Shown here: positions 29,463-63,224 of the stretch, one piece after another
Layout: every line of letters starts with the position of its first letter
How positions within the stretch are numbered: the stretch's first letter is position 1
Origin: a virus
IMG/VR virus record: IMGVR_UViG_3300045988_112440
DNA length: 64,000 nucleotides
Direction: 5' to 3' (one strand)
Notes under the pieces: generated by a model
Databases searched by the model: none
Told to the model about the DNA's origin: nothing
The model's input: only the letters and a program-made list of their open reading frames with translations
Position numbers and translations under genes: made by a program

Positions 29463-29482
29463 TATCCTGTATTTTATAGCTA
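29463..29482 (+). promoter_or_regulatory. 20-nt conserved element copy 1 (TATCCTGTATTTTATAGCTA)
   Basis: One of 7 copies; sits about 15 nt upstream (gene sense) of the RBS of the RNAP-like gene. Confidence 0.6.
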
Positions 29483-29507
29483 CAAAGAAAAATATAAAAT
29501 TAGGCTT

Positions 29508-29684
29508 TTACAGATAGCAACTCTCGCCATCTTCCATAGCCTTTAGCCAAAGTCGTTCACGCTCCTGATAGAGCTCATCCAGCATATCATCAGCAGCTTC
29601 GTACTCGTTGCGTGTCAGGCTATTGCTATTCATGTCACGCACAAGCTGCATGATTTCCGCATCAACATCCTCGTAAGTACGCAT
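29508..29684 (-). CDS. hypothetical small acidic protein (58 aa, below track cutoff)
   Basis: ATG 29682-29684, 1 codon after the upstream TGA; MRTYEDVDAEIMQLVRDM... Confidence 0.45.
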   Translation of the reverse strand: MRTYEDVDAEIMQLVRDMNSNSLTRNEYEAADDMLDELYQERERLWLKAMEDGESCYL

Positions 29685-29687
29685 TAC

Positions 29688-30083
29688 TCACCCCTCAACT
29701 TCCATTGTAACCATACTGATTTTACGATATGGGCACAAGACTTGCATACACCGGTCAATATCATCAAATACGACATTTTTTCTTCGACCACGTTCTGTCT
29801 TTTCGTGTTCGAAATATTGACAAATATCGTATAGACGAATTTCAATCGCTTCTACCACACCATTGAACTTGTGGTGGTTTATGATTATGGAATAAACATA
29901 ATCAGAACAAGTAATCCTGTCTATTTCTAACGAATCAAAATCTTTACAGATATCTTTGATAATATATTCCAAAGCTATCACACCGGCTCTATCTGGTGCT
30001 ACAATATCGCAGTCGTGTTCAATTGCGTGTTTACAAGCATCATATGAACGTCCATACCCACGAGGTAAAAGAACTTTCTCCAT
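29688..30083 (-). CDS. hypothetical protein
   Basis: 131-aa ORF coupled to its neighbours. Confidence 0.6.
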   Translation of the reverse strand: MEKVLLPRGYGRSYDACKHAIEHDCDIVAPDRAGVIALEYIIKDICKDFDSLEIDRITCSDYVYSIIINHHKFNGVVEAIEIRLYDICQYFEHEKTERGRRKNVVFDDIDRCMQVLCPYRKISMVTMEVEG

Positions 30084-30412
30084 TACTTGGCCTCCTCATC
30101 CATAATAGCTCCGCAGTAAGGGCAAAACATTACTTTTCTATCATTTCTCCAATAGTTCTCATCAACTTCAATGCATTCACATCCACATTCAGAACAAGCA
30201 CTATTACCATAATCGTCAATCCAATGAGCGTGAACTACAGGACGAAACTCACGATGCTGAACCTCATCTTGAATCATATTTTTGACTACGCCGAGCGTAA
30301 CAAAATTCGTAAGAAATCTCTCTGATTTACCATTCGCACGAGGCGGAACTGCTTTCAACGCAGCGTCAATACTGTCTAAAATTTTTGTTGCATTTACAAA
30401 CTTATCCATCAC
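30083..30412 (-). CDS. zinc-ribbon protein, paralogue of 30687-31004
   Basis: Shares EFRxVVHAHWI...C..C...FCPxCGAxMDEExK with its paralogue. Confidence 0.65.
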   Translation of the reverse strand: MMDKFVNATKILDSIDAALKAVPPRANGKSERFLTNFVTLGVVKNMIQDEVQHREFRPVVHAHWIDDYGNSACSECGCECIEVDENYWRNDRKVMFCPYCGAIMDEEAK

Positions 30413-30690
30413 TTAACCTCCTCAACAACCCGGCGGATTGTCTCATCAATCTGTTCAAGCTGCGTCAGCAAAACATCCACGGTATCAGCATCACTTTCGG
30501 AAATATTTAAATCCTTAATCTTATGTAAAGCCCATTCAAGGTTCGGGTAATAGCCGACCGTAACCTCCTTTACGCCGGTGCCCATCTCACCAGTCTTTGG
30601 ATTCTTGCCAGCAGGTCGCTGCTCAACGATTACGAGATTCCTCTCATCACAGTTCTTTATAATGTACTTTCCAATCTGAATACGCATCAC
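30409..30690 (-). CDS. hypothetical protein
   Basis: 93-aa ORF, 4-nt overlaps on both sides. Confidence 0.6.
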   Translation of the reverse strand: MMRIQIGKYIIKNCDERNLVIVEQRPAGKNPKTGEMGTGVKEVTVGYYPNLEWALHKIKDLNISESDADTVDVLLTQLEQIDETIRRVVEEVK

Positions 30691-31004
30691 TTAACCTCCT
30701 CGTCCATGACAGCTCCACAGTCAGGACAAAACTTTGATTCATCAATGTTTTTGCTAGAATGACAAGCCGAGCATTCGACAAAGAAACTTTCTCCAAAATC
30801 TTCAAAATGCTCAATCCAATGAGCATGGACTACTTGACGGAACTCGCCGCCTGCGGCCATCTCTTCTTGCATGTATTGAATTGCCCCTTCTAAAGTCATC
30901 TTACACACGGTTTTCTGAAAAGCAGAAACAGAACTATTATCGATCAATGGCTTTGTATCTTCCAATGTCTGAATCAAGTGTGTCGCGTTAATAAACTTCT
31001 CCAT
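30687..31004 (-). CDS. zinc-ribbon protein, paralogue of 30083-30412
   Basis: 105 aa; same C-terminal motif set. Confidence 0.65.
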   Translation of the reverse strand: MEKFINATHLIQTLEDTKPLIDNSSVSAFQKTVCKMTLEGAIQYMQEEMAAGGEFRQVVHAHWIEHFEDFGESFFVECSACHSSKNIDESKFCPDCGAVMDEEVK

Positions 31005-31060
31005 CGAATTTCTCTCCCTTTTATGTAAATGTATCTAAGAATACCTAAAGCTCTTATTTT

Positions 31061-31333
31061 TTATTCTTTTTTGCGGCCAGCCTTAAATGCGGCCACATCA
31101 TTCATGAAATCATTGATATCTAGGTACTTGTCAGCCTTCTGCACAGTCTTTGGCTTGAACTCTCGACACTTGCATCGCACCTCATCACAAGTGGTGAAAC
31201 ACGGGATCTCATACTGGCATTTTGTGCAGACATATTTCTTGTGAAACTCCGGAAAGCGTCCAGATGTTTGGTAGAACTCATAAGTTACCTTTAAATCAAT
31301 CCAATAGGGGTTATCAAAATTCATTGTACTCAA
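31061..31333 (-). CDS. Cys-rich hypothetical protein
   Basis: 90-aa ORF; CTKC..C..C..C pattern. Confidence 0.55.
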   Translation of the reverse strand: MSTMNFDNPYWIDLKVTYEFYQTSGRFPEFHKKYVCTKCQYEIPCFTTCDEVRCKCREFKPKTVQKADKYLDINDFMNDVAAFKAGRKKE

Positions 31334-31342
31334 CCTTCTTCC

Positions 31343-32512
31343 TTATCTTTTATAAGAACCATACCATTTAAATCCAGCACGAGGGATTCCAGAATTTGCA
31401 GGAATACGAATCATTCCATCTATAAAGAGCTGAAGAACCTCATCACTCAACTGCCTGTGCACAAAACGAAATGGTGGTTGAGAAATATCATTGTAATATT
31501 CTGGATTTTCCTCCAATACCGCTCTACCTCTTCTGACTGCAGAAAGTGTTGGGATATTCTCACACATCGCATCATTCATCTCGTGAAAGCATTGCTGTTG
31601 CAATTTATATTCTGTCCGTGCAGCAGATCGCTTCAACGAGTTTGGCTCAATCGTAATATGGTACATCGGTCGTGCTAGGTCATATGTAAAAATTTCCTTG
31701 AACCTATTATCTAATTCTTCATAGAACTCATGAAGCCGTCCAGTCAGAAATACGTCTTGTTCACTCTGGCACACTCGACCAGATGACGTATAGAACTCAT
31801 GAAGTACATTCGTATACATCTTCATATAAATGGCCTTTTGGTCTTCAGAAGGAATATGGTACTCTTCTGGATTATGGTTTATAAACACAGCTGGACAGTC
31901 TTCAAAAAATAGTTCCTTGTTTTTCGCCATAGATCTAAGCGCAGACTCAATGTACCCAACCATTGTAGATTTAGTACATTGTTGAAATGTCTCAGCATCC
32001 GCTGCTAAATTCTCTCTAAACTCATCCATTTGATCACGAGCAATACTTTCTAATGGTGTACCAACTATTTCAGCCCAGAAGGTATCATCGCCATGTAAAT
32101 CTTCTGGATATTGATAAAAATTTTTGTTAGTCATTCCACATGCTCGTAATATTGCAGCTGGTGTCCAAAAGAACTCCATCCAACTACTGCCGTCACATTC
32201 TTTAAGTAAGTGGTAAGCAATCTGGTTCTGCAAACGCAAAGAGAATTTCCCTTTATTTCTTGTCGGCAGAGGAGGAAGCACCTCATTGTCTGGACGAATC
32301 TTTACAATAATAAAGCGCTTTCCTTCCTTTTTAAATTCAACAAAACGATTCAAATCTTCAAGGAAATGTTTTTTACTATTCCCACCCAACGGTTTTCCGT
32401 TTTTATTAAGGATGTTGAGATAAGTAGATAGCTCCAAGAAGTTTGAGAACTTTTGTCCATCACTTAATTTGTTTACCATATCCTGCGTAACATTATAATT
32501 ATTTTGCTCCAT
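31343..32512 (-). CDS. hypothetical protein, first gene of the leftward operon
   Basis: 389 aa, GGAGG RBS, preceded by a structured leader of about 260 nt. Confidence 0.65.
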   Translation of the reverse strand: MEQNNYNVTQDMVNKLSDGQKFSNFLELSTYLNILNKNGKPLGGNSKKHFLEDLNRFVEFKKEGKRFIIVKIRPDNEVLPPLPTRNKGKFSLRLQNQIAYHLLKECDGSSWMEFFWTPAAILRACGMTNKNFYQYPEDLHGDDTFWAEIVGTPLESIARDQMDEFRENLAADAETFQQCTKSTMVGYIESALRSMAKNKELFFEDCPAVFINHNPEEYHIPSEDQKAIYMKMYTNVLHEFYTSSGRVCQSEQDVFLTGRLHEFYEELDNRFKEIFTYDLARPMYHITIEPNSLKRSAARTEYKLQQQCFHEMNDAMCENIPTLSAVRRGRAVLEENPEYYNDISQPPFRFVHRQLSDEVLQLFIDGMIRIPANSGIPRAGFKWYGSYKR

Positions 32513-32534
32513 ATTGCCTCCAGTTCTAATTTAG

Positions 32535-32740
32535 TTGTACTGACGAGTCTGTATTATATATATGTATGAAGATACATAGTCGTCAGTACAAGTACAACTA
32601 TCACAAAATATCTAATAATGGTTTACTCGACTTGAAGCTATGACGCGTAAGCGGCATAGATTCAATTTGAGTAAACCTACGAGCGTCCGCAGACGCGAGA
32701 TCCCTCTCCACCGTCGTAACGGTCCCTGTCCGGGAGGACT
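32535..32740. other. highly structured untranslated region (several stable hairpins with tetraloops)
   Basis: 12-bp stem TTGTACTGACGA/TCGTCAGTACAA (32535-32591). Nested hairpin GGTTTACTC..CTATG..CGC-GTAA-GCG..CATAG..GAGTAAACC (32620-32677). GCGTC-CGCA-GACGC (32683-32696). ACCGT-CGTA-ACGGT (32710-32723). Confidence 0.4.
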
Positions 32741-32773
32741 ACTATAAACATCCTCTTGCTATCTTCTTTACAG

Positions 32774-32793
32774 TATCCTGTATTGTATAGCTA
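32774..32793 (+). promoter_or_regulatory. 20-nt conserved element copy 2 (TATCCTGTATTGTATAGCTA)
   Basis: In the divergent control region; inverted relative to copy 3, which lies 38 nt away. Confidence 0.6.
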
Positions 32794-32831
32794 TCTACAC
32801 TCATTATACCATGAGATTGCCAAAAGTTCAA

Positions 32832-32851
32832 TAGCTACATAATACAGGATG
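32832..32851 (-). promoter_or_regulatory. 20-nt conserved element copy 3 (reverse complement CATCCTGTATTATGTAGCTA)
   Basis: Inverted partner of copy 2. Confidence 0.6.
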
Positions 32852-33782
32852 CGAGTATTTCTAGTGCCTATTATAATAAGGTATATTTTGGAGAGTATTG
32901 TTCTCTATAAATGACATTTAGATACTTTGTGTGTTCTGTGTAAGCTGCCAGAGGCTACAATTATGCTTATTAAATGTGTCTGGAGTCTCTAAGGGTGCTG
33001 CTCAGATGCCAGATCAGTCTATTTATGGCGATAGGGGAGTATGGATGAGCATAAATAGGTACTTTATACTCCGAAGAATGGTCATTTTCGGTACATTTTG
33101 GGTACACATCGGGAAAACCTGCATGAATCCTAGCTTTTTCGGATTTTATTGAGCTAAAAAGGAACAAAATAAGTGGTAAAAAGATACAAATAAAAAGAAA
33201 AACTAGCCAAAATATAACGAAAATACGTTAAATTCTAGCTAGTTACCGAATGAGCTACCGATTGAAAAATAGCGATTTTAAGCCATTTTTATGTATTTTG
33301 AGTGGAAAAATGAGTGATTTGTGAGTATGTGCAGGAGAGGGTATAGGGGTGTATTTTAGGATGATTTTGTCAGGGAAATGTACCCGGGTAGGAACAGGTT
33401 AAATAGTTAGATTGAGTTGATAGGATAGATAGAGGTTGTTGTGATTGAAAGAGAATGGTATTTTTGTGGAAATTGTTGTGCAGAATGTATAGAGAGCAAG
33501 AGAAGATGAAATTCATAATTGGTAATTATGAACAAGAAAGATGTACTGGGATCTCAGCCTGCTGCCTGGAATGTCTCAAAAATGAAAAGTATCCCCCATG
33601 GGGAAAAGCCGCTTTTGTGCAAAAAGCGGTATTTGCTTTAATTGAATAAAGTGCCTGTTTTGGCACTTTCCAGGCCGGGAATTATTCCTACTTTTCCGGT
33701 ATGTTTATAGCATTGATTTTTGCCAGGAATTGAATTTGCAAATTAGTTGCATTTTCGTCGTGTTCGATATCAAAATGATATC

Positions 33783-33826
33783 AAATGTTGCGTGTGCAAC
33801 ATTTTGTAAAGTATTTTTACTTTACA
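33783..33826. repeat. two adjacent perfect 9-bp hairpins
   Basis: AAATGTTGC-gtgt-GCAACATTT and TGTAAAGTA-tttt-TACTTTACA, back to back in AT-rich DNA. Confidence 0.7.
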
Positions 33827-33870
33827 TCAATTATGCTATTCTCTATATCTTGTATTCAATTCACAAAAAA

Positions 33871-33963
33871 CCACAATATCTAGTATCTATCTATATTGTT
33901 CAATATCGCACTATCCACAATATCTAGTATTCAACCATTCGTTCAAACCACAATATATAGTAT
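33871..33963 (+). repeat. three direct 16-nt iterons CCACAATAT(C/A)TAGTAT
   Basis: Copies at 33871, 33915 and 33948, so spacing is 44 and 33 bp (multiples of 11). Palindrome ATATTGTTCAATAT lies between copies 1 and 2. Confidence 0.7.
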
Positions 33964-34975
33964 TGCCGGGTACTGTTGTACCTATTAGAGTTTTGCCTGC
34001 CTAGGCGCACGCACGCGCGTGAACACGTTTCCGCGTGTTTCTTAAAATTCTTTAACTATTCGATCACAGCCTTGCCAAAATATAATTTTTAACGATATAT
34101 CGCTATTTTATAAAATCCTGGAATTCTTGCGTGTTTTGTCCATGCGTTTGCAACAAAAGTATATGTTCAACCATGGTAGAACGTGGTAAAGTATAGCCAC
34201 CGGAAGGCCGGAAGGCTTGAAGGGACGCACGGTCGGAAGGTGCGGAAAAGTTCCCCGATAAATCGTTTAAAAGCAAGCGGTCGTTCCCCGAACGGAAGGA
34301 GATGCAAAAGCAAATAGTACGGAACGGCGCTCATGCAAAATACCACGCCTAACAGGCGGGAGAGAGGATAGAACGGTTTTAGACGTGCACACAAAATAGC
34401 CCTTCAATCAATCGAACGGCTAAACAAATGGCACGGCGGGCAAGGCGGTCGGAATCCGTACTTGTTCAAATGGTTCACCTTGCAAAACAGGCCGGAACCG
34501 ATTCCAGATTGACAAAATGCGCTGGAAGGATAAAAACAATATAACCGTTTTGAAAGAATCCAAAACGCAAGTTTTGGCAACGTTTCAAACGCAAGCTATC
34601 AGTTTGTTACTTTTAGGCGGTACAATGCAATCTTGTATGATTGAGAAAACAGAATATTTTTGCAAAGATATGCAATTAGACGGCGCTGGACCTCAAAAGT
34701 TTGGCGCTTTTTGTTTGGACTTCAAAAGTTTGGACTTGTCGCAGATAATAGCAAAAATAGACAGTTTTCCGTGACAATTGAATAATAGCAAGCATGGTTG
34801 AAGGGCTGTTTTTGGCAGACAGAGGGTAAACCATGCTTTACAGTATACATATTTGCCCATCGTGGGCGAACCATAGGCTACAGGCAGAACCTGGAATTTT
34901 GTCTGTAGCACTTGGCTTGCTCATAATAGCAAGAAGTCCATACACACATTATAACACATAAAGGAGAAAAATACT

Positions 34976-35785
34976 ATGTCTACTACTACCATTCTGTCCG
35001 CTATCAACTTCAACGCTACCGCAGCCGCAGAGAAGAACCGCACCACCGGTGCAGCCGTTGCCCTTTTCAAGAAGGGCGGCAAGGAAGTCAACACCTCTGA
35101 GAAGGCCCTGGGCAGAGACTGCCTGAAGGGTATCACAGCAGAGCAGTACGAGACCTATTGCAAGGCCGTCCGTGCTGTCTATCTGGATGCTGATTTGCTG
35201 GCACGCTATGCCGCAGACGCGGACTCTGTTCAGAAGATTAAGACCTTCTACTTCAACGATCTGGCAAACCTTACCACCGCTATCATGGGCGATACCTTCA
35301 AAGTCAATGATGTCTTTGCAACCTTCACTGTTGAGCAGTTCATTGAGCAGAGCGTGGGCAAGGTGCGTGCATTCACCGCTACCACAGCAGGCCACGGCTA
35401 CGACACGGAAGCAGAATCTCAGACTAAGTTTGTCAAGTGGGTCGAAGCATGGTTTAGCGCCAACGCAAGCGGTGTTGCTATGCTCTCTATGGCAGAGCGT
35501 GACCGCCGTGCAAGTGTCCGCAAGCTGTCCTCTAAGGTTGTGCGCCTTACTAAGAGTGTCGAGAATGCAGAAGAAGTACTGTCCAGTGCTAAGAAGGAGC
35601 TGGACTCTCTCAAGAACAAGAAGGACACCAACGCAAAAACTCTGGAAAAGAAGATGAAGGCTGTTCAGGGCATGGAAAAGGATCTGGCAGACGTTAAGAA
35701 GAGCCTGGAATCTGCTCAGACTAAACTGGCAGACCTTCAGAGCAAGGACTTCACCAACGACTTCAGCGCAGAAGAAACCCTGTAA
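34976..35785 (+). CDS. hypothetical protein, first rightward gene; C-terminal Lys/Glu coiled coil
   Basis: 269 aa, AAGGAGA RBS; GC-richer, strongly biased codons like the capsid gene, suggesting high expression. Confidence 0.7.
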   Translation: MSTTTILSAINFNATAAAEKNRTTGAAVALFKKGGKEVNTSEKALGRDCLKGITAEQYETYCKAVRAVYLDADLLARYAADADSVQKIKTFYFNDLANLTTAIMGDTFKVNDVFATFTVEQFIEQSVGKVRAFTATTAGHGYDTEAESQTKFVKWVEAWFSANASGVAMLSMAERDRRASVRKLSSKVVRLTKSVENAEEVLSSAKKELDSLKNKKDTNAKTLEKKMKAVQGMEKDLADVKKSLESAQTKLADLQSKDFTNDFSAEETL

Positions 35786-35828
35786 TTAAACCACGCAACC
35801 ATCGTGAACACGCAAGAGCTCTACATAA

Positions 35829-35872: not shown

Positions 35873-35916
35873 ACACGGCAGTAATGCCGTCACTATCAAT
35901 CGAAAGAAGGGATACT

Positions 35917-39624: not shown

Positions 39625-39653
39625 TTGACAAAATCGGCAGTATCCTGTATTCT
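39625..39653 (+). promoter_or_regulatory. sigma-70/sigma-A-type promoter TTGACA-17-TATTCT
   Basis: -35 at 39625-39630 and -10 at 39648-39653; the -10 and spacer overlap copy 4 of the 20-nt element. Confidence 0.55.
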
Positions 39654-39660
39654 ATAGCTA
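39641..39660 (+). promoter_or_regulatory. 20-nt conserved element copy 4 (TATCCTGTATTCTATAGCTA)
   Basis: Inverted relative to copy 5, which lies 39 nt downstream. Confidence 0.6.
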
Positions 39661-39699: not shown

Positions 39700-39719
39700 T
39701 AGATATATAACACAGGATA
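39700..39719 (-). promoter_or_regulatory. 20-nt conserved element copy 5 (reverse complement TATCCTGTGTTATATATCTA)
   Basis: Ends about 10 nt before the RBS of 39742-40290. Confidence 0.6.
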
Positions 39720-39741
39720 CGCAAGAAAAGGAGATTTGACT

Positions 39742-45093: not shown

Positions 45094-45315
45094 ATGTGGG
45101 ATTTAATTGAAAATGAATATTCTAAAAAATATGGAATTGGGTGCGCAACCTTTTTTCGTGACAAACAATTAAAAACAGCAATGGTTATGTATAAATATAA
45201 TGGCCGTAGCGTTATGTTTTGCTATTCCGAGTACGATAATAAGATTCTATCTGATGGTGATAAAGACGAAATTGAGATGACAATCAAAAAGAAACTCAAC
45301 TTTTGGAAGGATTAA
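45094..45315 (+). CDS. MWDL-family small protein, tandem copy 1
   Basis: MWDLIENEYSKKYGIGCA...VMYKY...; GAGGAG RBS. Confidence 0.6.
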   Translation: MWDLIENEYSKKYGIGCATFFRDKQLKTAMVMYKYNGRSVMFCYSEYDNKILSDGDKDEIEMTIKKKLNFWKD

Positions 45316-45317
45316 CT

Positions 45318-45554
45318 ATGTGGGATTTAATGGGTAACAATTATTCAGAAGTATACGGTATTGGATATGCTTTACTGAATGGAATTTCAGCTGGGTTTTA
45401 TGTGAGTGTCATGTACAAGGACCTTGGAGATGAAATTCACTTCTATTATCTTGATAATGCTCCTTACGGAGAACTTGATGATAATACCAAAAATAAAATT
45501 GAGGATATTATCCGTGATGACCTCAATAAGCGTCATATTTTTGGGGAGGACTGA
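45318..45554 (+). CDS. MWDL-family small protein, tandem copy 2
   Basis: MWDLMGNNYSEVYGIGYA...VMYKD... Confidence 0.6.
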   Translation: MWDLMGNNYSEVYGIGYALLNGISAGFYVSVMYKDLGDEIHFYYLDNAPYGELDDNTKNKIEDIIRDDLNKRHIFGED

Positions 45555-45556
45555 TT

Positions 45557-45820
45557 ATGTGGGATTTAATAATAAATAATTACCACGAAGAAGATGGAAC
45601 AGGTTGCGCCTTGATGTTCAACACAAGTGATAGGTGTTATCTTGATGTTATGTACAAGTGTAGGCCGTTACACAATTCAATTCGTGTTTTTTATTCTCTT
45701 AATATTTCAGAGAATGAAAAAGAGAATATCGAAGAAGCACTTGTAAAAGAACTGAGAAACAATGGAGTTTTAAGGAGCGATGATTATGTGGGACCTGAGG
45801 GAAGTTCACGCTTGTTTTGA
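45557..45820 (+). CDS. MWDL-family small protein, tandem copy 3
   Basis: MWDLIINNYHEEDGTGCA...VMYKC...; its 3' end overlaps copy 4 by about 35 nt. Confidence 0.6.
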   Translation: MWDLIINNYHEEDGTGCALMFNTSDRCYLDVMYKCRPLHNSIRVFYSLNISENEKENIEEALVKELRNNGVLRSDDYVGPEGSSRLF

Positions 45821-56604: not shown

Positions 56605-56621
56605 ATTCTGTGGAGTAAAAC

Positions 56622-57326: not shown

Positions 57327-57458
57327 TGATGTAAAGTATGCAAGAATTGATAAAATCCGGGTTCTTGTGGATATTTAACAAAAGGATGTGTAGACCGATG
57401 ATATAACTATTGATGACGTAGGATTATTAGTAAAATTTTGGAAAATAAAATTGTTGGA

Positions 57459-57487
57459 TTGAAAATTACATTCATGTGGTGTATGAT
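57459..57487 (+). promoter_or_regulatory. sigma-70/sigma-A-type promoter TTGAAA-17-TATGAT
   Basis: -35 at 57459-57464, 17-nt spacer ending GTG, -10 at 57482-57487. Sits in the 215-nt gap before the small membrane peptide and Lar-like genes. Confidence 0.5.
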
Positions 57488-57541
57488 TTAAGCAACCTCA
57501 GCACAAGATGTTTAAGCTAAAAGAAATGTGAGGTTAATATA

Positions 57542-57697
57542 ATGTGGATTATGATAATATCGTTTATTGCATTTTACTTTGTACTGCTTGTTCCTTTTGG
57601 GATTTTTGTAATGGGACTACTGAAAGTGGCGTCTATTGCTGATGATCAGAGTGAGCGGCTGGAAATGGAACAGGGAAGGGATGGTCAAAATGTATGA
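57542..57697 (+). CDS. small membrane peptide (51 aa, below track cutoff)
   Basis: MWIMIISFIAFYFVLLVPFGIFVMGLL...; its GAGGT RBS can pair with AACCTCA at 57494-57500. Confidence 0.45.
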   Translation: MWIMIISFIAFYFVLLVPFGIFVMGLLKVASIADDQSERLEMEQGRDGQNV

Positions 57698-57884
57698 TTT
57701 GAAATCGTGCCCATGTTGTGGTGGTCCAGCAACGCTTTTTAAATTGAGAGCGCAAGTCATATGTGATTATTGTGGACTGAGAACAAAAGCGTATTATGAT
57801 AATCTTGTTAATTGTGGAATGCCAGATAATAATATGCTTTTGGATGCAGTAAATGCTTGGAATAAACGAGTTGATAAAAGTTAA
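57690..57884 (+). CDS. Lar-family restriction-alleviation-like zinc-ribbon protein
   Basis: Start ATG 57690. LKSCPCCGG...CDYCG...AVNAWNKR matches my recollection of the Lar family pattern. Confidence 0.55.
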   Translation: MYDLKSCPCCGGPATLFKLRAQVICDYCGLRTKAYYDNLVNCGMPDNNMLLDAVNAWNKRVDKS

Positions 57885-57902
57885 GATTTAGGAGGAATGA
57901 AT

Positions 57903-58067
57903 ATGAACAGATATGATCTTTCCGCTTATGCGATTGCAGTGTCAAACTTTTTGAAAGATAATGCTTCTGCTGGCAATGAACGATTTCCAATTACGGTCAA
58001 TGAATGGGAACTCGCAGCGCAACTGGATAAGCTGGCAAAAGAACTGCGTGTCCCAGATAAAAACTGA
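57903..58067 (+). CDS. hypothetical small protein (54 aa, below track cutoff)
   Basis: ATG 57903, 7 nt after a GGAGG RBS. Confidence 0.45.
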   Translation: MNRYDLSAYAIAVSNFLKDNASAGNERFPITVNEWELAAQLDKLAKELRVPDKN

Positions 58068-58086
58068 GTTTTAATGGAGATACATT

Positions 58087-58284
58087 ATGAAAAAGTTCGT
58101 TGTTCTTTTTGAAGGTTGGAATGATAAGCACGACCGTGAATGTATGTGCTATGTTGTTGATGCAGATGATGGCTTTGAAAGTATTTTGAGCGTTGAAGAA
58201 CGGGCGGAAAAGATGGCTCGAAGCAAACATCCTAATCTGAAAAATTTTAAGACGCTTTACATCAAAGAACTGCTTAACAGATAA
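58087..58284 (+). CDS. hypothetical small protein
   Basis: 65 aa, TGGAGA RBS. Confidence 0.55.
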   Translation: MKKFVVLFEGWNDKHDRECMCYVVDADDGFESILSVEERAEKMARSKHPNLKNFKTLYIKELLNR

Positions 58285-58310
58285 GAACTAAGATTTAGGA
58301 GGAAATAGTT

Positions 58311-59087
58311 ATGCCGAGAAGGAAAACAGTAGAAGCACTGCAATTAACGCCGAAAGAAATAGCTCGTAAGTCGCCTACTTTTATGGAGCTTCCTGAGATG
58401 GTAAGCCGTGCTGGTGAGCCTACATACTATTATGATGTGGGAGATGCTGTAGAGATTGGTCATCTTAGCGGATGCAAGATTGATGAAGTCTGCGACGGTG
58501 GTTTATATTACGGTGTTTCTTACGATGATGGATATAGGTACGAAACGTGGTTTAACATTCGTAAAGCAGGTATTGAGAAGAAATCTCAACTGACAGAGAA
58601 TGATGACATTAAGATTTCCTACTCAAATGTGACCATCGAATCCTTGCTCCACAGGTATTACTTCTTTGGCATCAACTGCAATCCGAGTTATCAACGTGGA
58701 TCTGTGTGGACAGATGATGACCGTAAACTGCTTCTTGAAACAATTTTTATGGGTGGTGAAATTGGTCGATTCGTTTTAAAAAATATTGATATGGACGAAT
58801 GGAATGAAAATCAGAATTACCTTTATGAAATCATTGATGGAAAGCAGAGGCTTCTGACGCTGACTGCATTCTACGAAGATCGTTTCCGTTACAAAGGATA
58901 TCTGTATAGTGAACTCTCTAAAAAGGACAAGAGAACATTTGATGAGGCCGTTGTTGCTATTGCAGATTTGCGGAATCTTTCTAAGAAAGATATGTTGCGT
59001 GTATTCTTGTTACTGAATCGTGGCGGCAAGGTTGTTACCAACGACGTACTTAATCATGCAAAAGAGTTACTAGATGAAATGGAGTGA
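58311..59087 (+). CDS. DUF262/ParB-like nuclease-domain protein
   Basis: 258 aa; NPSYQRGSVWTDDDRKLLLETIFMGGEIGRFVL and IIDGKQRLLTL motifs (the N-terminal domain type seen in GmrSD). Confidence 0.65.
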   Translation: MPRRKTVEALQLTPKEIARKSPTFMELPEMVSRAGEPTYYYDVGDAVEIGHLSGCKIDEVCDGGLYYGVSYDDGYRYETWFNIRKAGIEKKSQLTENDDIKISYSNVTIESLLHRYYFFGINCNPSYQRGSVWTDDDRKLLLETIFMGGEIGRFVLKNIDMDEWNENQNYLYEIIDGKQRLLTLTAFYEDRFRYKGYLYSELSKKDKRTFDEAVVAIADLRNLSKKDMLRVFLLLNRGGKVVTNDVLNHAKELLDEME

Positions 59088-59091
59088 GTAA

Positions 59092-59427
59092 ATGATTTAT
59101 ACCGTAACAATGATTGACTCGTTTAAGAACGAGCAGAATGCGAAATTCAGTTCGCCAGTGTCAAATACCAAAGGAATCTATTGGATGCCGGATGATAGTT
59201 GGATCGCTGGATTCTTTACAGATTTGGCAGAGGCTATTCGAGTTGTTAAAGAAAACGTGACTGACATCTTTGAACATTGTTACAACTACGCAGTCGTTGA
59301 AGGATACGAGGAAGGTCTGTATCCAAGACCAGAATTGACGAGGTGGTTTAAATATGATGCTGAGAGTGACACAGCATTCGAGATTGAACCGCCGTTGCAT
59401 AATAAGGTGGCCGGATATGCGTTTTGA
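59092..59427 (+). CDS. hypothetical protein
   Basis: 111 aa, GGAGTGAG RBS. Confidence 0.6.
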   Translation: MIYTVTMIDSFKNEQNAKFSSPVSNTKGIYWMPDDSWIAGFFTDLAEAIRVVKENVTDIFEHCYNYAVVEGYEEGLYPRPELTRWFKYDAESDTAFEIEPPLHNKVAGYAF

Positions 59428-59444
59428 AGAAGGAGAATAAGACT

Positions 59445-59600
59445 ATGAGTAGTGTACTTATTGATCGGAACGCAGCTAAGAAGGTAGAATCCATCTTCGA
59501 GCATCCTGATAAGGTCTATTCGGTGTATTTGAAAGCTGGCGGAGATGTCGTTTGGCTGCAAGGTGAAATTGAGTTGTATGAATTTTTGCGTAGCTTGTAA
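59445..59600 (+). CDS. hypothetical small protein (51 aa, below track cutoff)
   Basis: ATG 59445 behind an AAGGAGAA RBS. Confidence 0.45.
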   Translation: MSSVLIDRNAAKKVESIFEHPDKVYSVYLKAGGDVVWLQGEIELYEFLRSL

Positions 59601-59626
59601 AACTAAGTTTTAATATAGGTGATTTT

Positions 59627-60379
59627 ATGACAAGAAATGAATTGCTTGGAGCATTATGCTTTCCAGAATATAATTTTCTTCGGGAGAATGAGCATCTTGG
59701 CAAGCATATGATGTTCGTAACGGTCGGTGGCAGTCATGCTTATGGAACAAATGTTGAGGGTTCAGATCTCGACATCCGAGGGGTGGCATTAAATTCAAGA
59801 GAAGACCTTCTTGGTCTTGGTGAGTTTGAACATTATGTGGATACTCAAACTGATACTACAATCTACAGCTTTAATAAGGCTGTGAAGCTAATGTGCAGTG
59901 GAAATCCTAATATGCTGGAGCAGCTAGGGAACGCCGATGAACTCGTTATTAGCTATAATCCAATGACAAAGTTACTTATGGATAATAAAAAGCTGTTCCT
60001 GTCGAGGCGTGTAATCTATTCGTTTGGCGGTTTTGCAGGTAAGCTGATTCAGAAGGCTGATACGCTGGACAAAGATCCAATTTATCATGGCTCAAAGAAA
60101 ATGCACAAGACGGTAATGAATGTAGTTCGTGTATACCTGATGCTCTTTGACATCTTAGAAAAAGGTGAAATTAAAACCTATCGAGACAACGATCATAACT
60201 TCCTGACGCAGCTTCGCAACGGTGAATATGATTACAAAGAGATTCGTCAGCAACTGATTCCGGCCTATGAAAGCAGATTGTCAGTGGACAAGAGTGAGAC
60301 TTACCTGCCGGACAATGTTGATTGGAAGCGGGTCAACGAGCTTGTGATGACTGTAAATGAGGAGTCTTTAAAGATTTGA
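59627..60379 (+). CDS. Pol-beta-superfamily nucleotidyltransferase (RlaP/PF10127-like)
   Basis: 250 aa; VTVGGSHAYGTNVEGSDLDIRGV N-terminal nucleotidyltransferase motif. Confidence 0.6.
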   Translation: MTRNELLGALCFPEYNFLRENEHLGKHMMFVTVGGSHAYGTNVEGSDLDIRGVALNSREDLLGLGEFEHYVDTQTDTTIYSFNKAVKLMCSGNPNMLEQLGNADELVISYNPMTKLLMDNKKLFLSRRVIYSFGGFAGKLIQKADTLDKDPIYHGSKKMHKTVMNVVRVYLMLFDILEKGEIKTYRDNDHNFLTQLRNGEYDYKEIRQQLIPAYESRLSVDKSETYLPDNVDWKRVNELVMTVNEESLKI

Positions 60380-60406
60380 TAAAACCAATATTTTAGGAGT
60401 GATATT

Positions 60407-60586
60407 ATGAAAACTTTTGATGTTTTAAAAGTTGGACAGACTATTGTAGCCGAAGACGGGGACACAATGAAAGTTATTGATTATGATTTTTATGGGACAG
60501 GGCAGAATATCATGTGCTTTATGTCGGATCGTTGTGTATATCCATCAACTGAGTTTAATGCAGGCGATTGGGAGATTGAAAGTTGA
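60407..60586 (+). CDS. hypothetical small protein (59 aa, below track cutoff)
   Basis: ATG 60407 behind a TAGGAGTG RBS. Confidence 0.45.
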   Translation: MKTFDVLKVGQTIVAEDGDTMKVIDYDFYGTGQNIMCFMSDRCVYPSTEFNAGDWEIES

Positions 60587-60613
60587 AAGGAGGTTTTATT
60601 TATCACTAATAAG

Positions 60614-61228
60614 TTGTTAACAAATCGTGAGCAAAGCGTTGCTATTGTGTGTATAATGTGCCTGCTGGCAGGGAATTTAGTAATAAAAGCGTTACCGAAT
60701 ACTGAAGTTGGAGGCACATATACATATTATAATGATCAATCGGTTCATAATGTTACACAGGCAACAAAAGAAGATGAGAACGATGAACCTACAATTTTTG
60801 TAAAGAAAATCGTTGAAACGAAGGTGGTGAACTTTAGCCAGGGTAAACATGAACTCACTGATGATGAGCGTGCTCTTGCAGAGCAGATTGTTGCTTGTGA
60901 AGCAGGTGCTGACAGTTTGGAAGGCCAGATGGCCGTTGCTCAATGTCTTTATGATTCCGCTGTACTTGATGATTTAACCATCCAGCAGGTCTTTAAGAAG
61001 TATGGTTATAGTTCCTTATATAATAGGAAGGTTACAGCAGAGAATGAGCTGGCTGTCTCTATGGTGTTTGATTATGGTGCTAAAATTTCAGACAAACCTA
61101 TCCAATGGTTTGTAACCCCGACTGCAGCTCCCGGCAGTTGGCACGAGCGTGGAGCAACCTTTGCTGGACAATTTGGCGCACATAGGTTCTATTATGATTC
61201 GAAGTTGGTTGTGGATGATGCTGAGTGA
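60614..61228 (+). CDS. SleB/cell-wall-hydrolase-like protein with N-terminal membrane anchor
   Basis: 204 aa. LAEQIVACEAGADSLEGQMAVAQCLYD resembles the Hydrolase_2 (SleB) signature. The TTG start lies 20 nt after the GGAGG RBS, so the start is uncertain. Confidence 0.55.
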   Translation: MLTNREQSVAIVCIMCLLAGNLVIKALPNTEVGGTYTYYNDQSVHNVTQATKEDENDEPTIFVKKIVETKVVNFSQGKHELTDDERALAEQIVACEAGADSLEGQMAVAQCLYDSAVLDDLTIQQVFKKYGYSSLYNRKVTAENELAVSMVFDYGAKISDKPIQWFVTPTAAPGSWHERGATFAGQFGAHRFYYDSKLVVDDAE

Positions 61229-61281
61229 ATGGCGTCATCTAAAATTTTGATAAATAATACAACAAAAAGATGTGTAATATA

Positions 61282-61309
61282 TTGACTAAAACAAAAGGCT
61301 GTGTATAAT
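61282..61309 (+). promoter_or_regulatory. sigma-70/sigma-A-type promoter TTGACT-16-TATAAT (TG directly upstream of -10)
   Basis: -35 at 61282-61287 and -10 at 61304-61309. Confidence 0.55.
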
Positions 61310-61353
61310 ATATCTTGAAAGTTGTTTGTGTGAGCGGAAGGCGGTTATTCTTG

Positions 61354-61680
61354 ATGAGCGATAGAAAGGTTTTGAAAGTTATACGGGTTGATGATTTTTT
61401 AAAGTACATAAGAAAAAAGCGAGTGTGGGTCTGCTTTGTTTGTAATGGTGTGGATATTCACATGATCTGCAAAAAGATTGACGACATTGGCGTAGAGACG
61501 GGTGGGATTGTTAATGGCGTGGGGTTCTTCGGAAATGAGAGTCACATCGAGTTGCGACAAAAATGCCATGAAGTAAGGAGAATTGAACTTAGGTCTGGCT
61601 GTGCAGAGAAAGCGTATGAGATGATCTTCGATAATACTAGTGTGTTCGTATCAGAGAATCCTGAGTTGTACGGGCACTAA
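61354..61680 (+). CDS. hypothetical protein
   Basis: Start ATG 61354 preferred over the track TTG at 61315; 108 aa. Confidence 0.5.
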   Translation: MSDRKVLKVIRVDDFLKYIRKKRVWVCFVCNGVDIHMICKKIDDIGVETGGIVNGVGFFGNESHIELRQKCHEVRRIELRSGCAEKAYEMIFDNTSVFVSENPELYGH

Positions 61681-61699
61681 AAATATTTTCAAAAACCTC

Positions 61700-61728
61700 T
61701 TGACTTCTGTGATTGTATCCTGTATAAT
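61700..61728 (+). promoter_or_regulatory. sigma-70/sigma-A-type promoter TTGACT-17-TATAAT
   Basis: -35 at 61700-61705 and -10 at 61723-61728; overlaps copy 6 of the 20-nt element. Confidence 0.6.
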
Positions 61729-61735
61729 GTAGCTA
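61716..61735 (+). promoter_or_regulatory. 20-nt conserved element copy 6 (TATCCTGTATAATGTAGCTA)
   Basis: Overlaps the -10 of the promoter for the MazF-like/recombinase-like gene pair. Confidence 0.6.
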
Positions 61736-61771
61736 TGGAACGGAGCTACATCATTGTAGAGGAGAATGACT

Positions 61772-62191
61772 ATGGATAACAATATTGACCCAAAGGTCGG
61801 AGAGGTTTGGTTGGTTGATCTATCCAATGCGACAGGTCATCAGCAGCGCGGCATTCGACCGTTCGTTGTGACAAGTAACAACAAGCGTAACTTCTTCAGC
61901 CCAACAATCAAAGGGAATCCGTTATCTTCAAGAATATATAAGCGTTCTCCGGTTCATGTTCTACTCTCAAAGGAAGACTGCGAGTTCCTAGAGGTTGATA
62001 GTATCGTTCTCTGCGAAGAGACTGATACACTTAACAAAGGACAGTTCATCAAGAAACTTGGTGTCTTGTCGGAGCGTCAGATGAATATGATTGCAATGGC
62101 AAGATGCAAAGATGAACCATTTTTGCTCGCAGCATTTCTGAGCGGTGTACAACATACTATGGAATTTCAGAATTTTGCCGCATTTGCTTGA
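61772..62191 (+). CDS. MazF/PemK-family toxin-like endoribonuclease
   Basis: Start ATG 61772. KVGEVWLVDLSNATGHQQRGIRPFVVTSNN...PLSS...VDSIVLCEETDTLNKGQFIKKLGVLSERQM fits the PemK fold pattern. No obvious MazE-like partner lies directly upstream. Confidence 0.65.
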   Translation: MDNNIDPKVGEVWLVDLSNATGHQQRGIRPFVVTSNNKRNFFSPTIKGNPLSSRIYKRSPVHVLLSKEDCEFLEVDSIVLCEETDTLNKGQFIKKLGVLSERQMNMIAMARCKDEPFLLAAFLSGVQHTMEFQNFAAFA

Positions 62192-62242
62192 TTTGTTCTC
62201 AGGTTTAATGGTACACTACATAATAAGAAGGAGTGTGCCACT

Positions 62243-63169
62243 ATGCTTACTGAAGAAAAAATCAAATCTTTTGCCGAAAAGTATTCTGATAGAAGCGGTG
62301 AGTTTGTTATATCGACGCTTAACCATGTTATGGATTACGAGGCCGAGCGTGGATATGAGTTGTTTGACTTCACAAAAGATGATTTTGTAAGGATGTTTGC
62401 TAAATACAATTGGGTGAACTCAAGTCGGTCGTTCAGAAATGTAAAGTCGATAATTACAGGGTACATCAAAAGTGATGATCGAGCGAGTATGTATGACTTA
62501 GCTGAATTCTCGGAGAGCGATGTGAGTTCAGACAATATGTACGAGGACAAGTATTTTGCATCAGTTGATGAGTTTGTTGATTTCTTGGACAAGTATGAAG
62601 AACCATATCAGATTCGTATGAACGTGATTGCCGTACTGTACTGGATTGGACTTACTTCTGAAGAGGTTTCTAATCTGACAATCAACAATGTTGATTTTGA
62701 ATCATGTACTGTTCTGAATAGGACCGGTGTTGACGCAAGACTGATGAATATCATTAAGCAGTGTTATGAAATGAAACAATACGATGCTCCAAATATGGGA
62801 GGATACAGAACGTTTTATGTCATAAATGGTGATTACATCCTTCGCAAAACAGAGGATAGAACTGGTGCAGACAGTGATTCAAGAATGTCTACAAACACAA
62901 TTCATAGTTATTTCACGCGCTTGAATGATATTCTCGAAAGAAGATATCATTCAAAGGCTTTAGACCGAAGACATCTGACTAGAAACGGCGAGTATGTCAA
63001 GGTTTATAACTACTGTAAAACTCATCCAGAATTTAATCTTGCAGAACTTAGTTTCGGAAATGGTAAAGATCCTCTTGCGGACATTATCGGAAGAAAGTGC
63101 AGCAAGGTTGCCTACATTAGTTTCCGGCAAGGATACAAGGGCTGGATCGAATACTTCCACAAAAATTAA
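62243..63169 (+). CDS. degenerate tyrosine-recombinase-like protein (Arg I lost); candidate DNA-binding regulator
   Basis: 308 aa; recombinase-like layout, but box I reads WIGLTSEEVSNL (Thr in place of Arg); HLTRN retained; AAGGAG RBS. Confidence 0.5.
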   Translation: MLTEEKIKSFAEKYSDRSGEFVISTLNHVMDYEAERGYELFDFTKDDFVRMFAKYNWVNSSRSFRNVKSIITGYIKSDDRASMYDLAEFSESDVSSDNMYEDKYFASVDEFVDFLDKYEEPYQIRMNVIAVLYWIGLTSEEVSNLTINNVDFESCTVLNRTGVDARLMNIIKQCYEMKQYDAPNMGGYRTFYVINGDYILRKTEDRTGADSDSRMSTNTIHSYFTRLNDILERRYHSKALDRRHLTRNGEYVKVYNYCKTHPEFNLAELSFGNGKDPLADIIGRKCSKVAYISFRQGYKGWIEYFHKN

Positions 63170-63173
63170 AAAC

Positions 63174-63197
63174 AGGGGGCTTCGGCCCCTTGATTTT
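63174..63197 (+). terminator. rho-independent terminator
   Basis: AGGGGGC-TTCG-GCCCCTT hairpin followed by GATTTT. Confidence 0.7.
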
Positions 63198-63204
63198 AAC
63201 ATTG

Positions 63205-63224
63205 TAACTATATAACACAGGATA
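63205..63224 (-). promoter_or_regulatory. 20-nt conserved element copy 7 (reverse complement TATCCTGTGTTATATAGTTA)
   Basis: Ends about 10 nt before the RBS of the Pnkp-like gene. Confidence 0.6.

Follow-up and report, generated by a model that had tools for sequence, protein, structure and literature searches.

A short DNA element recurs seven times in the 64,000-nt stretch of viral DNA analysed here (the window), which raises the question of what reads it. The original prediction left two readings, operator sites of a phage repressor or the promoter of the phage RNA polymerase. A pattern search of the 64-kb window recovered three exact copies of the 20-nt element (29463+, 32774+ and 39641+) and four copies with one mismatch (32832-, 39700-, 61716+ and 63205-), in agreement with the seven copies and coordinates first reported, and no further copy was found at up to 3 mismatches. 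Only 0.03 copies were expected per shuffled window, and none of 100 shuffles reached seven. All seven copies lay in non-coding DNA, whose share of the window a simple gene call puts at 12.3% (chance ~4e-7), so their strictly intergenic placement held as well. The repeat was thus real, but its length had to be corrected, since a G precedes all seven 20-nt copies and the unit is therefore 21 nt. Read on the opposite strand, the element is TAGCTA-yaN-AAy-ACAGGATAC, with the consensus form TAGCTA-N3-AA-N-ACAGGATAC. Its 21-bp logo is asymmetric and sharp-edged, with two conserved blocks and a variable stretch between them, and inspection of sequence and logo detected no internal dyad. The copies, hereafter boxes, are dispersed across at least 34 kb of the window, among the following features (box strands refer to the opposite-strand reading):

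26648..29431, minus strand: predicted YonO-type RNA polymerase gene, 927 aa
29462..29482, minus strand: box 1, TAGCTATAAAATACAGGATAC; 14 nt separate its end from the GGAGG RBS of the YonO-like RNA polymerase gene
32773..32793, minus strand: box 2, TAGCTATACAATACAGGATAC; points to the left operon
32803..32831, minus strand: host sigma-A-type promoter P_L, TTGAAC-17-(TGg)TATAAT, 10/12 plus TG; between boxes 2 and 3
32832..32852, plus strand: box 3, TAGCTACATAATACAGGATGC; abuts the P_L -35 and points to the right arm
39625..39653, plus strand: host-type promoter, TTGACA-17-TATTCT, 10/12
39640..39660, minus strand: box 4, TAGCTATAGAATACAGGATAC; points against the genes and covers the -10 of the 39625-39653 promoter
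39700..39720, plus strand: box 5, TAGATATATAACACAGGATAC; followed after ~7 nt by the RBS of the 39742 gene
61700..61728, plus strand: host-type promoter of the MazF-like/SroF-like operon, TTGACT-17-TATAAT, 11/12
61715..61735, minus strand: box 6, TAGCTACATTATACAGGATAC; points against the genes and includes the TATAAT of the repressor-operon promoter
61766..62191, plus strand: PemK/MazF-like toxin gene (PF02452, 1.7e-19), first listed gene of the repressor operon
62243..63169, plus strand: SroF/MrpR(YopR)-family integrase-fold gene, proposed repressor, 308 aa
63174..63190, plus strand: terminator-like hairpin, AGGGGGCTTCGGCCCCT plus T-rich tail, 3' of the repressor gene
63205..63225, plus strand: box 7, TAACTATATAACACAGGATAC; 39 nt past the repressor stop, just after the terminator hairpin
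63247..64000, plus strand: Pnkp-like gene (P-loop kinase plus metallophosphatase), 3' of box 7; runs off the window

Five of the seven boxes point to the adjacent gene, whereas those at 39640 and 61715 point against the genes. Boxes 2 and 3 stand in the divergent region with their TAGCTA ends facing and their starts 59 nt apart, box 2 lying some 3-23 nt past the inferred P_L start, and boxes 4 and 5, 60 nt apart, form a second pair with facing TAGCTA ends. Box 7 lies 21 nt before the ATG (63247) of the Pnkp-like gene. The positions relative to genes, the facing pairs and the promoter overlaps at 39641 and 61716 were thus re-found as first described. Altogether, boxes overlap or bracket three host-type promoters that are close to consensus. 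Several gene-directed copies are preceded by a terminator, followed by an RBS and have no good host-type -35/-10 close by, which we counted against an operator function, and the -10-like hexamer inside gene-directed copies often ends in C (TATAAC). The boxes precede genes of early or DNA-metabolism type and not structural genes.

More than 80 related phage contigs of ~130 kb from the human gut have kept the element in the same places. Box 1 occurred at the same offset before the polymerase gene in 80 of 80 RNA polymerase loci, and the repressor operon was flanked by a box on each side in all 80 loci examined, with box 6 preceding the start of the repressor gene by ~530 nt (80/80 loci) and box 7 after the repressor stop codon (80/80 repressor loci). 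About 17 or more site classes were found among the relatives, 62 members belonging to the class of box 4 and 12 to that of the box at 61715. In at least 11 classes the element is directed at the following gene and stops 3-25 nt short of its RBS; in one, L176, it points against the neighbouring genes, as do the boxes at 39640 and 61715. The host-type promoters were conserved too: the P_L hexamers were at or near full conservation in 66 distinct relative sequences (the -35 being TTGAAC in the window and TTGAAT in the relatives' consensus), the TTGACA of the 39625-39653 promoter was invariant in 46 distinct relatives, and the 61700..61728 promoter was invariant in the relatives. Close box pairs always started 59-61 nt apart in 110 distinct sequences from three settings with unrelated spacers, a constancy that was counted in favour of an operator; SroF, the repressor of phage phi3T, is reported to be monomeric, yet this spacing is fixed, which was likewise counted against an operator function. 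In divergent relatives, whose SroF-like protein is 24-38% identical, the synteny was kept, including the MazF-like/repressor gene order, and other sequence stood at the box positions, namely TATACTAACAATCAT in L294 and TAAGCACACAAACAC in L296, while in L293 the box between the terminator and the Pnkp gene was replaced. Within the close phage family, box, repressor and polymerase were conserved jointly; because both proteins are conserved with the box there, the co-variation of each with the box is not separable in that family.

The protein encoded at 62243-63169 was then compared with known repressors. A family profile that includes it matched YopR/MrpR of SPbeta (hhalign, 97.8%, E 8.5e-13, 263 columns). 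Of 32 family members, 20 matched Pfam MrpR_N_CB; the protein of the window scored 21 bits, under the 27-bit cut-off. The seven best PDB matches of its structural model (pLDDT 90) were all SroF/YopR/MrpR (Foldseek, E 2e-8 to 6e-7), led by DNA-bound phi3T SroF (9rd5; E 2.3e-8, TM 0.54), and Cre and lambda Int appeared among the matches at 1e-3 or worse. In a weak alignment, the box-I catalytic arginine is replaced, GLTSEE standing opposite GLRISE of Tn1549 Int, and the same motif aligned, again weakly, to GLAHSE of YopR. Judged by profile and predicted fold, the protein is homologous to MrpR/YopR/SroF, the master repressor of SPβ and phi3T. The similarity to MrpR/SroF is remote, with 13-19% identity and an E value of 0.3 in single-sequence BLASTP against YopR, and this remoteness was counted against assigning the boxes to it.

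The second protein to be considered as the reader of the box is the polymerase. The product of 26648-29431 matched Pfam PF05183 (7.5e-15), was 26% identical to SPbeta YonO and contains DGMDWDGD; by these sequence criteria it is a YonO-type single-subunit two-barrel RNA polymerase. A T7-type identity was ruled out by the PF05183 match and the identity with SPbeta YonO. The box could be a ~21-bp promoter of this polymerase, with the start near its 3' end as in T7-type promoters. Supportively, most copies and at least 11 site classes of the relatives point to the next gene a short distance before its RBS, several follow a terminator without a good host-type promoter (63205 and the L090 and L109 classes), and the length and sharp edges of the element resemble those of phage-polymerase promoters. 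No promoter sequence has yet been defined for YonO in the literature searched (PMC5467207). In distant relatives, too, the polymerase gene is preceded by a repeated element, different from ours and running in the direction of the gene, and L202, L205 and L206 bear a further copy of theirs downstream of that gene. Nevertheless, every copy of a polymerase promoter would be expected to run in the direction of its genes, and the boxes do not: the conserved boxes at 39640 and 61715 are antisense to all neighbours and lie exactly over host-type -10 elements, and a strong host-type promoter is nested inside the divergent pair. Neither does any copy lie ahead of the late operon, where a YonO promoter would be expected. 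At up to 4 mismatches, no copies were found in the intergenic gaps of the late arm (1-29400) or, in nine relatives listed individually, over 10 kb past the polymerase gene, no late-arm site class occurred among all loci, and the polymerase-side copy lies only upstream of the polymerase gene. The early or DNA-metabolism character of the genes behind the boxes also argues against such a promoter.

The reference phages point the same way. SPbeta YonO initiates at a single site upstream of yonK and transcribes late genes alone (PMC5467207), whereas the promoters bearing the SPbeta element SPBRE are MrpR targets, with MrpR ChAP-seq peaks on SPBRE at ten promoter regions, including those of yonP (polymerase operon) and yopM (its own operon) (PMC10516654). 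We found no SPBRE in the yonN-yonK gap of SPbeta, and the SPBRE copies extracted from this phage read toward the gene, most of them abutting the RBS. Furthermore, YonO of SPbeta and phi3T are 97.9% identical, whereas the box before yonP is SPBRE in the one and Phi3TRE-like in the other; the element thus differs between phages with near-identical YonO and, in these reference phages, appears to follow the repressor type, not the polymerase. A promoter of the phage polymerase is therefore unlikely. Between the two readings first offered, this one is disfavoured, whereas homology, layout and the comparison with SPbeta and phi3T favour the repressor operator, and we propose that the polymerase gene is a target of repression and not the source of the reader of the box.

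Three other explanations were weighed. The boxes might be bound by another protein, either a MazE-like antitoxin/MazF complex of the same operon or an unrecognised small regulator, given that a PemK/MazF-like gene and an unassigned 121-aa ORF lie in or beside the box-flanked operon, that toxin-antitoxin pairs autoregulate via their own promoter and that most small ORFs of the window lack an assignment. Toxin-antitoxin operators, however, are limited to their own promoter and usually palindromic, unlike asymmetric boxes spread over at least 34 kb; none of the ten small early ORFs, the 121-aa ORF included, carries a Pfam DNA-binding domain; and a member of an experimentally proven box-binding family (SroF/MrpR) is encoded between two boxes. 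Another binder is thus quite improbable. Still less probable are recombination sites of the recombinase-like protein, which might, for example, invert the 1.5-kb segment between 61715 and 63205. The tyrosine-recombinase fold and the inverted copies flanking the operon in 80/80 loci would suit this, but the box lacks a two-arm dyad around a 6-8-bp crossover region, the segment has one orientation in all 80 loci, the close pairs have a mere 38-39-bp spacer and most copies are unpaired. The box-I catalytic arginine, moreover, appears to be replaced as in MrpR, which is not a recombinase (PMC10516654). Finally, the element could work at the RNA level, in the 5' leader, for example by being cut by MazF or by controlling translation, since most copies would fall in a transcribed leader just before the RBS, UACA is present and a MazF-like endoribonuclease is encoded nearby. 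We give this hardly any credence: two conserved copies would reach the mRNA solely as the complement, the box at 32832 lies upstream of P_L, abutting its -35, and conservation over 21 nt in DNA-operator-like blocks is unlike a short cleavage motif.

The element is therefore read here, with a probability of roughly 0.75, as the operator box of the integrase-fold SroF/MrpR(YopR)-type master repressor encoded at 62243-63169, and most likely corresponds to the SPBRE of SPbeta and the Phi3TRE of phi3T. The sequence facts, their conservation, the protein homology and the layout match with SPbeta and phi3T were seen directly; from these, and by analogy, we infer binding and repression by the 62243-63169 protein. 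Each box would be clamped by one repressor monomer via its core-binding and catalytic-like domains. The boxes over -10 elements (39640 and 61715) and those flanking the P_L -35 and start site (32773 and 32832) would stop initiation by the host RNA polymerase, whereas the boxes a few bases before the first-gene RBS (polymerase, 39742 and Pnkp-like genes) may block elongation or weak local initiation, a roadblock role being assumed for the gene-directed copies between terminator and RBS. Late genes would stay off indirectly through silencing of the YonO-like polymerase gene, and the box over the repressor operon's own promoter would provide negative autoregulation. If true, the boxes keep the prophage of a large SPβ-like gut phage silent, as in the Bacillus phage SPβ.

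Among known systems, the promoters of T7, T3 and SP6 resemble the boxes in being one ~20-bp conserved block before gene units, often right after a terminator. They are, however, all co-directional with their genes and serve a T7-type polymerase, whereas the window has the unrelated YonO type, two conserved antisense copies and coincident host-type promoters. With lambda CI/Cro the window shares a divergent control region, repressor sites over early promoters and repressor autoregulation. The lambda operators, though, are short palindromes clustered at two loci and bound by helix-turn-helix dimers, whereas the sites here are long, asymmetric and spread widely, and their candidate binder has an integrase fold.

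The likeness to SPbeta extends to the integrase-fold repressor MrpR (YopR, SroF-SPbeta), homologous to the window protein; to SPBRE, which is asymmetric, ~21 bp long (CAAATACAAAWAATATGTATA as extracted) and present in about ten intergenic copies; to boxes in front of both the yonP-yonO polymerase operon and the operon of the repressor itself; and to a genome plan in which one arm holds the late genes together with the YonO gene and the other the early and lysogeny genes. In contrast, the SPBRE and window box sequences are unrelated, the repressors are just ~14-18% identical, the operon is [ORF]-MazF-like-repressor instead of sroA-F, window boxes also occur in inverted pairs and antisense over -10 elements, and a gut bacterium of Clostridia type, rather than Bacillus, is the host. 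In phi3T, one ORF separates sroF from a downstream Sar gene under LexA control, whereas the next gene in the window is Pnkp-like. No Sar-type antirepressor candidate was identified and no arbitrium genes (aimR-aimP-aimX) were recognised in these 64 kb of a ~130-kb genome, the 389-aa protein and ten small ORFs giving no Pfam match, nor did the window hold a convincing LexA box, its one LexA-like box being at chance frequency; these absences were also counted against an operator function. The Phi3TRE box differs from ours in being 26 bp long and A-tract rich. As a monomer, phi3T SroF binds this asymmetric box, which occurs in numerous copies scattered through the genome, and reads 24 bp of it (bioRxiv 10.1101/2025.11.27.690993); its two domains lie in successive grooves, a mode of reading that fits a window box with two conserved blocks and a variable middle.

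A degenerate search of the window for the 20-nt repeat recovered the seven copies of the original prediction, three of them exact and four with one mismatch, against a mean of 0.03 in shuffled sequence; no further copy appeared with up to three mismatches. A G precedes all seven, so the unit is a 21-mer rather than a 20-mer, here called the box, which on the opposite strand reads TAGCTA-yaN-AAy-ACAGGATAC. The copies had been described as exclusively intergenic, and by a simple gene call all seven indeed fell in the non-coding 12.3% of the window (chance ~4e-7). Their claimed regulatory positions, before the RNAP-like and Pnkp-like genes, in two facing pairs and on a -10 hexamer, were all borne out by the arrangement listed below.

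Boxes, associated promoters and neighboring genes in the window
29462, box ending 14 nt ahead of the GGAGG of the 927-aa RNAP-like gene (26648-29431)
32773 and 32832, facing pair of boxes in the divergent region, TAGCTA ends facing, starts 59 nt apart
32803-32831, leftward, near-consensus host-type promoter P_L, TTGAAC-17-TGgTATAAT, exactly between boxes 32773 and 32832
39640 and 39700, second facing pair, same arrangement, 60 nt apart
39625-39653, near-consensus host-type promoter TTGACA-17-TATTCT, its -10 inside box 39640
61715, box containing the -10 of the near-consensus host-type promoter TTGACT-17-TATAAT at 61700-61728
61766-62191, PemK/MazF-like gene
62243-63169, gene of the 308-aa repressor-like protein
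63205, box 21 nt ahead of the ATG of the Pnkp-like gene, after a GC hairpin with a T-rich tail
63247 onward, gene of a kinase-phosphatase of the Pnkp kind

GC skew and the ORF map placed genes on the minus strand up to ~32.5 kb and on the plus strand from ~32.9 kb. The three host-type promoters were invariant in relatives, with the P_L hexamers at or near full conservation. Several boxes follow a terminator and precede an RBS; TATAAC is a frequent form of the -10-like hexamer inside them, and inspection of these sites found no decent host-type promoter nearby. Between box 32773 and the first gene of the left operon, which encodes a 389-aa protein, the 260-nt leader holds a 23-nt inverted repeat (32532-32594; 87% complementary, 17-nt loop), which may be a leader hairpin or attenuator.

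The polymerase, that is, the 927-aa protein, picked out 241 stretches in IMG/VR, 80 of which (83-100% identity; mostly contigs of ~70-140 kb, the longest ~141 kb) were compared. All 80 carried the box at the same offset ahead of the polymerase gene, and the divergent pair was also present in nine individually listed relatives. Similarly, in all 80 loci fetched with the alignment of the repressor-like protein (84-99% identity), one box lay ~530 nt before its start and another 39 nt after its stop. The entire spacer upstream of the polymerase gene was conserved at the divergence sampled, so phylogenetic footprinting cannot discriminate there; open frames 5′ of start codons confounded a test that used stop-free frames to judge whether copies in relatives are intergenic, and its outcome was left out. 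In a logo of 217 distinct contexts, information content jumped at position 1 and dropped after position 21, with two near-invariant blocks, TAGCTA and AA-ACAGGATAC, separated by a variable stretch; position 21, which was not part of the search pattern, was C in 97% of contexts. The 567 matches in 2.7 Mb of loci fell into 21 context classes, two or three of which resemble chance similarity. Classes absent from the window lie before a ligase-like gene, a cytosine methylase, a P-loop ATPase and several small genes, and none of them before a structural gene. With up to four mismatches, no box was found in the late-arm intergenic gaps of the window or within 10 kb downstream of the polymerase gene in the nine listed relatives. 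Close box pairs occurred in three settings with unrelated spacers, their starts always 59, 60 or 61 nt apart (110 distinct sequences), and a few tandem pairs were 69 nt apart.

More distant Clostridia relatives (polymerase 45-57% identical; Anaerocolumna, Tyzzerella, Ruminococcus and other MAGs; loci L200-L211) were without this box. Each had its own ~24-nt repeated element before the polymerase gene, always co-directional, for instance TCAATACAAATATACTATTTACA in L202, GTCAAGCTAAAAATATTATTTACA in L206 and CTCATTGTACCAACATTCTATTAC in L207, and L202, L205 and L206 carried a copy downstream of that gene as well. Many of these elements finish in ATTTACA ~8 nt ahead of the RBS, and that of L202 has AATACAAATA in common with SPBRE, the repressor box of Bacillus phage SPβ.

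In SPβ, ChAP-seq located the master repressor MrpR (YopR, SroF) on the repeated element SPBRE at ten promoter regions, including yonP, at the head of the yonP-yonO polymerase operon, and yopM, at the head of the repressor's own operon (PMC10516654). SroF of phage phi3T is a monomer that encircles a 26-bp asymmetric box, of which 24 bp are read; its boxes are scattered genome-wide, and the LexA-controlled antirepressor Sar removes it (preprint 2025, 10.1101/2025.11.27.690993). SPBRE copies extracted from the SPβ record were ~21 bp, asymmetric, always directed to the downstream gene and mostly ending at the RBS. The box showed no sequence likeness to SPBRE or to the phi3T box, Phi3TRE, beyond AT-richness.

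The 308-aa protein gave only a sub-threshold Pfam match, to the MrpR N-terminal domain, and BLASTP against SPβ YopR returned an E value of 0.3. With a shallow alignment hhalign was uninformative and the first AF2 model reached a pLDDT of 64; both were mended by a diverse alignment of 32 sequences from a full HMMER search of 1.84 billion representatives. This alignment matched YopR over both domains (hhalign, 97.8% probability, E 8.5e-13), MrpR_N_CB was matched by 20 of its 32 sequences, and the AlphaFold model built from it had a pLDDT of 89.9. The seven best PDB matches of the model were DNA-bound phi3T SroF, the SroF-Sar complex, YopR and MrpR (E 2e-8 to 6e-7), which true recombinases trailed by at least three orders of magnitude. 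When the protein was aligned, weakly, with the integrase of Tn1549, the box-I catalytic arginine appeared to be replaced (GLTSEE against GLRISE), as it is in YopR. Searches of PDB sequences with the protein (phmmer and hmmsearch) gave sub-threshold matches only; cultured phages gave no match by tblastn with the protein or by megablast with the region, and a profile search of genome contigs with the repressor alignment gave none. Some contigs bearing repressor homologues are as long as 784 kb, in keeping with a prophage state.

The order of a 110-121-aa ORF, a PemK-MazF-like toxin gene and the SroF-like gene was kept even at 24-29% repressor identity.

Loci with the order ORF, MazF-like gene, SroF-like gene
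Window, 61315-63169
L294, 9060-11008
L296, 277-2209
L297, 5096-6972

Relatives with a 24-38% identical SroF-like protein retained this order and the terminator behind it, with other sequences at the box positions, repeated within their own genome in two of three cases. Replication genes of SPβ type (YorF, AAA_24, YorH, DnaB) come after this gene order. At the far-left end, where genes turn to the plus strand, a LexA-box-like dyad, GAACTCCTGTTC (984-995, plus strand), precedes by ~60 nt a 68-aa all-helical ORF (1059-1265). With one such match expected by chance, the dyad points only weakly to a Sar-type antirepressor under SOS control.

Taken together, the box is probably the operator of the SroF/MrpR-family repressor encoded at 62243-63169 (probability roughly 0.75), as judged from sequence and from analogy to the Bacillus phages. 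A homologous family is proven to bind such boxes in such places, three near-consensus host-type promoters coincide with boxes, and the repressor operon is always bracketed by them; in addition, the divergent SroF-like relatives keep the gene order with other sequences at the box positions. The repeat being purely the promoter of the phage polymerase is improbable. Most copies do point toward a gene and abut its RBS, but this habit does not discriminate, because SPBRE, a proven repressor box, behaves likewise. The terminator-to-RBS copies with TATAAC and no decent host-type promoter would also suit a polymerase promoter, as would the co-directional elements of the Clostridia relatives, in three loci present downstream of the polymerase gene too. 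However, boxes 39640 and 61715 are directed against every neighboring gene, which makes no sense for a promoter. Moreover, YonO, the SPβ polymerase, is 97.9% identical between SPβ and phi3T over 625 residues, whereas the element abutting the yonP RBS is SPBRE in SPβ and a Phi3TRE-like sequence in phi3T; the repeat upstream of the polymerase thus follows the repressor in the Bacillus system, again in favor of an operator.

It is also unlikely that the box is, or also serves as, the promoter of the YonO-type two-barrel single-subunit RNA polymerase. In that case gene-directed terminator-to-RBS copies would be promoters and antisense copies repressor-only or shared sites; if true, it would give the first promoter consensus for that polymerase class. 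Four other readings were rejected. Recombination sites do not agree with a box without dyad, an apparently replaced catalytic arginine and a flanked segment in a single orientation in 80 loci, nor does a toxin-antitoxin operator agree with dispersed, asymmetric sites. An RNA-level signal is at odds with two copies whose transcripts would carry just the complementary sequence and with one copy located 5′ of a promoter; copies neither clustered nor palindromic speak against iterons or parS.

Judged by its sequence, the 927-aa protein is a YonO-type two-barrel single-subunit RNA polymerase rather than a T7-type one, because it matches Pfam PF05183 (7.5e-15), carries DGMDWDGD and by tblastn is 26% identical to SPβ YonO and 38-41% to proteins of Clostridium phage c-st and Enterocloster phages. 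YonO itself transcribes the late operon only, starting at a single site (position 2225998 of strain 168) that lies upstream of yonK; its promoter sequence is undefined (PMC5467207), and literature searches turned up no later definition. No SPBRE occurs in the yonN-yonK gap of the SPβ record, where YonO is reported to start. Within this 1.7-kb gap, at 19410-19475 and 20720-20829 of L081, the fetched SPβ locus, a DUF3800-VIII RNA scored above threshold (47.5 bits) and a skipping-rope RNA below it.

The promoter of the window's polymerase is unlikely to be the box, and the conserved region 25763-25914 (minus strand) is a better place to look, which narrows the search for a YonO-type promoter. This gap between the 251-aa gene following the polymerase gene and the next gene contains a perfect 16-bp palindrome, TAACGTAGATACGTTA, overlapping TATAAT, followed by TTTACA, ~45 nt, a GGTAGG...CCTACC hairpin with a T-run and the next RBS. 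The gap lacks a box, and 77 of 80 relatives conserve it. A role in late-operon control is possible: the region could combine a promoter with a terminator behind it, a layout like that of lambda PR'-tR', or could be what the YonO-like polymerase really targets. It is placed much like the YonO start in SPβ. A search of the late-arm gaps for a second shared motif as polymerase-promoter candidate yielded T-runs only.

Several further features were observed in the window. Three tRNA genes (22349-22422, 22490-22578 and 22774-22844) lie within 21829-22844 on the minus strand; beyond them, between the early-left and the packaging/structural genes, a stretch of 520 nt without ORFs and with a higher GC content (21829-22348) may encode a structured RNA, and Rfam searches of the whole window and of this segment found the three tRNAs only. 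Two paralogous small minus-strand genes (30083-30412 and 30687-31004; both phrog_22543, DNA repeat D12), between the divergent region and the polymerase gene, flank a 93-aa protein matching a PHROG annotated "replication initiation protein." Three tandem paralogous small ORFs at 45094-45820 (repeat families D1 and D8) each have a ATGTGGGATTTAAT start and a similar RBS region. A second repeated pattern, TGATAAAA-N6-7-(A)TTTTAGGAGG, occurs on the plus strand at gene junctions of the right arm (42332, 46471, 48246, 54914, 57872, 58055, 58279 and 60377), with stop codon(s), an A/T-rich spacer and an RBS in this order, and looks like a conserved intercistronic junction rather than a promoter.

If the box is an operator, each copy would be clamped by one repressor monomer, and boxes on a -10 or flanking a promoter would stop initiation by the host polymerase. 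Those right before an RBS would be roadblocks to transcription arriving from upstream, such as read-through past the repressor operon's terminator toward the Pnkp-like gene. With the polymerase gene repressed, the late arm would stay silent, and the box on the repressor operon's own promoter would provide autoregulation. The 59- to 61-nt pair distance may be the room required for sandwiching a promoter, much as TTGATT-17-TATAAT at SPβ yonX lies between two direct SPBREs spaced by 64 nt; alternatively, it may come from contact between the bound proteins.

Integrase-fold SroF/MrpR repression is known only from Bacillus SPβ-like arbitrium phages, and the window seems to hold a new lineage of this system, from an abundant and widespread group of ~130-kb human-gut phages with no member among cultured phage records. 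Its box sequence is new, and it has a conserved compact MazF-like-plus-repressor operon and fixed-distance inverted box pairs. The outcome is a defined consensus for the proposed operator, together with a named candidate for the protein that binds it and three promoters as candidate targets, each open to direct testing. The genome plan is that of SPβ, with late genes and the polymerase gene on one arm, a divergent region, and then early/lysogeny genes including the repressor. In Bacillus arbitrium phages the switch works via the MazEF system of the host, whereas here a MazF-like gene lies in the phage's own repressor operon.
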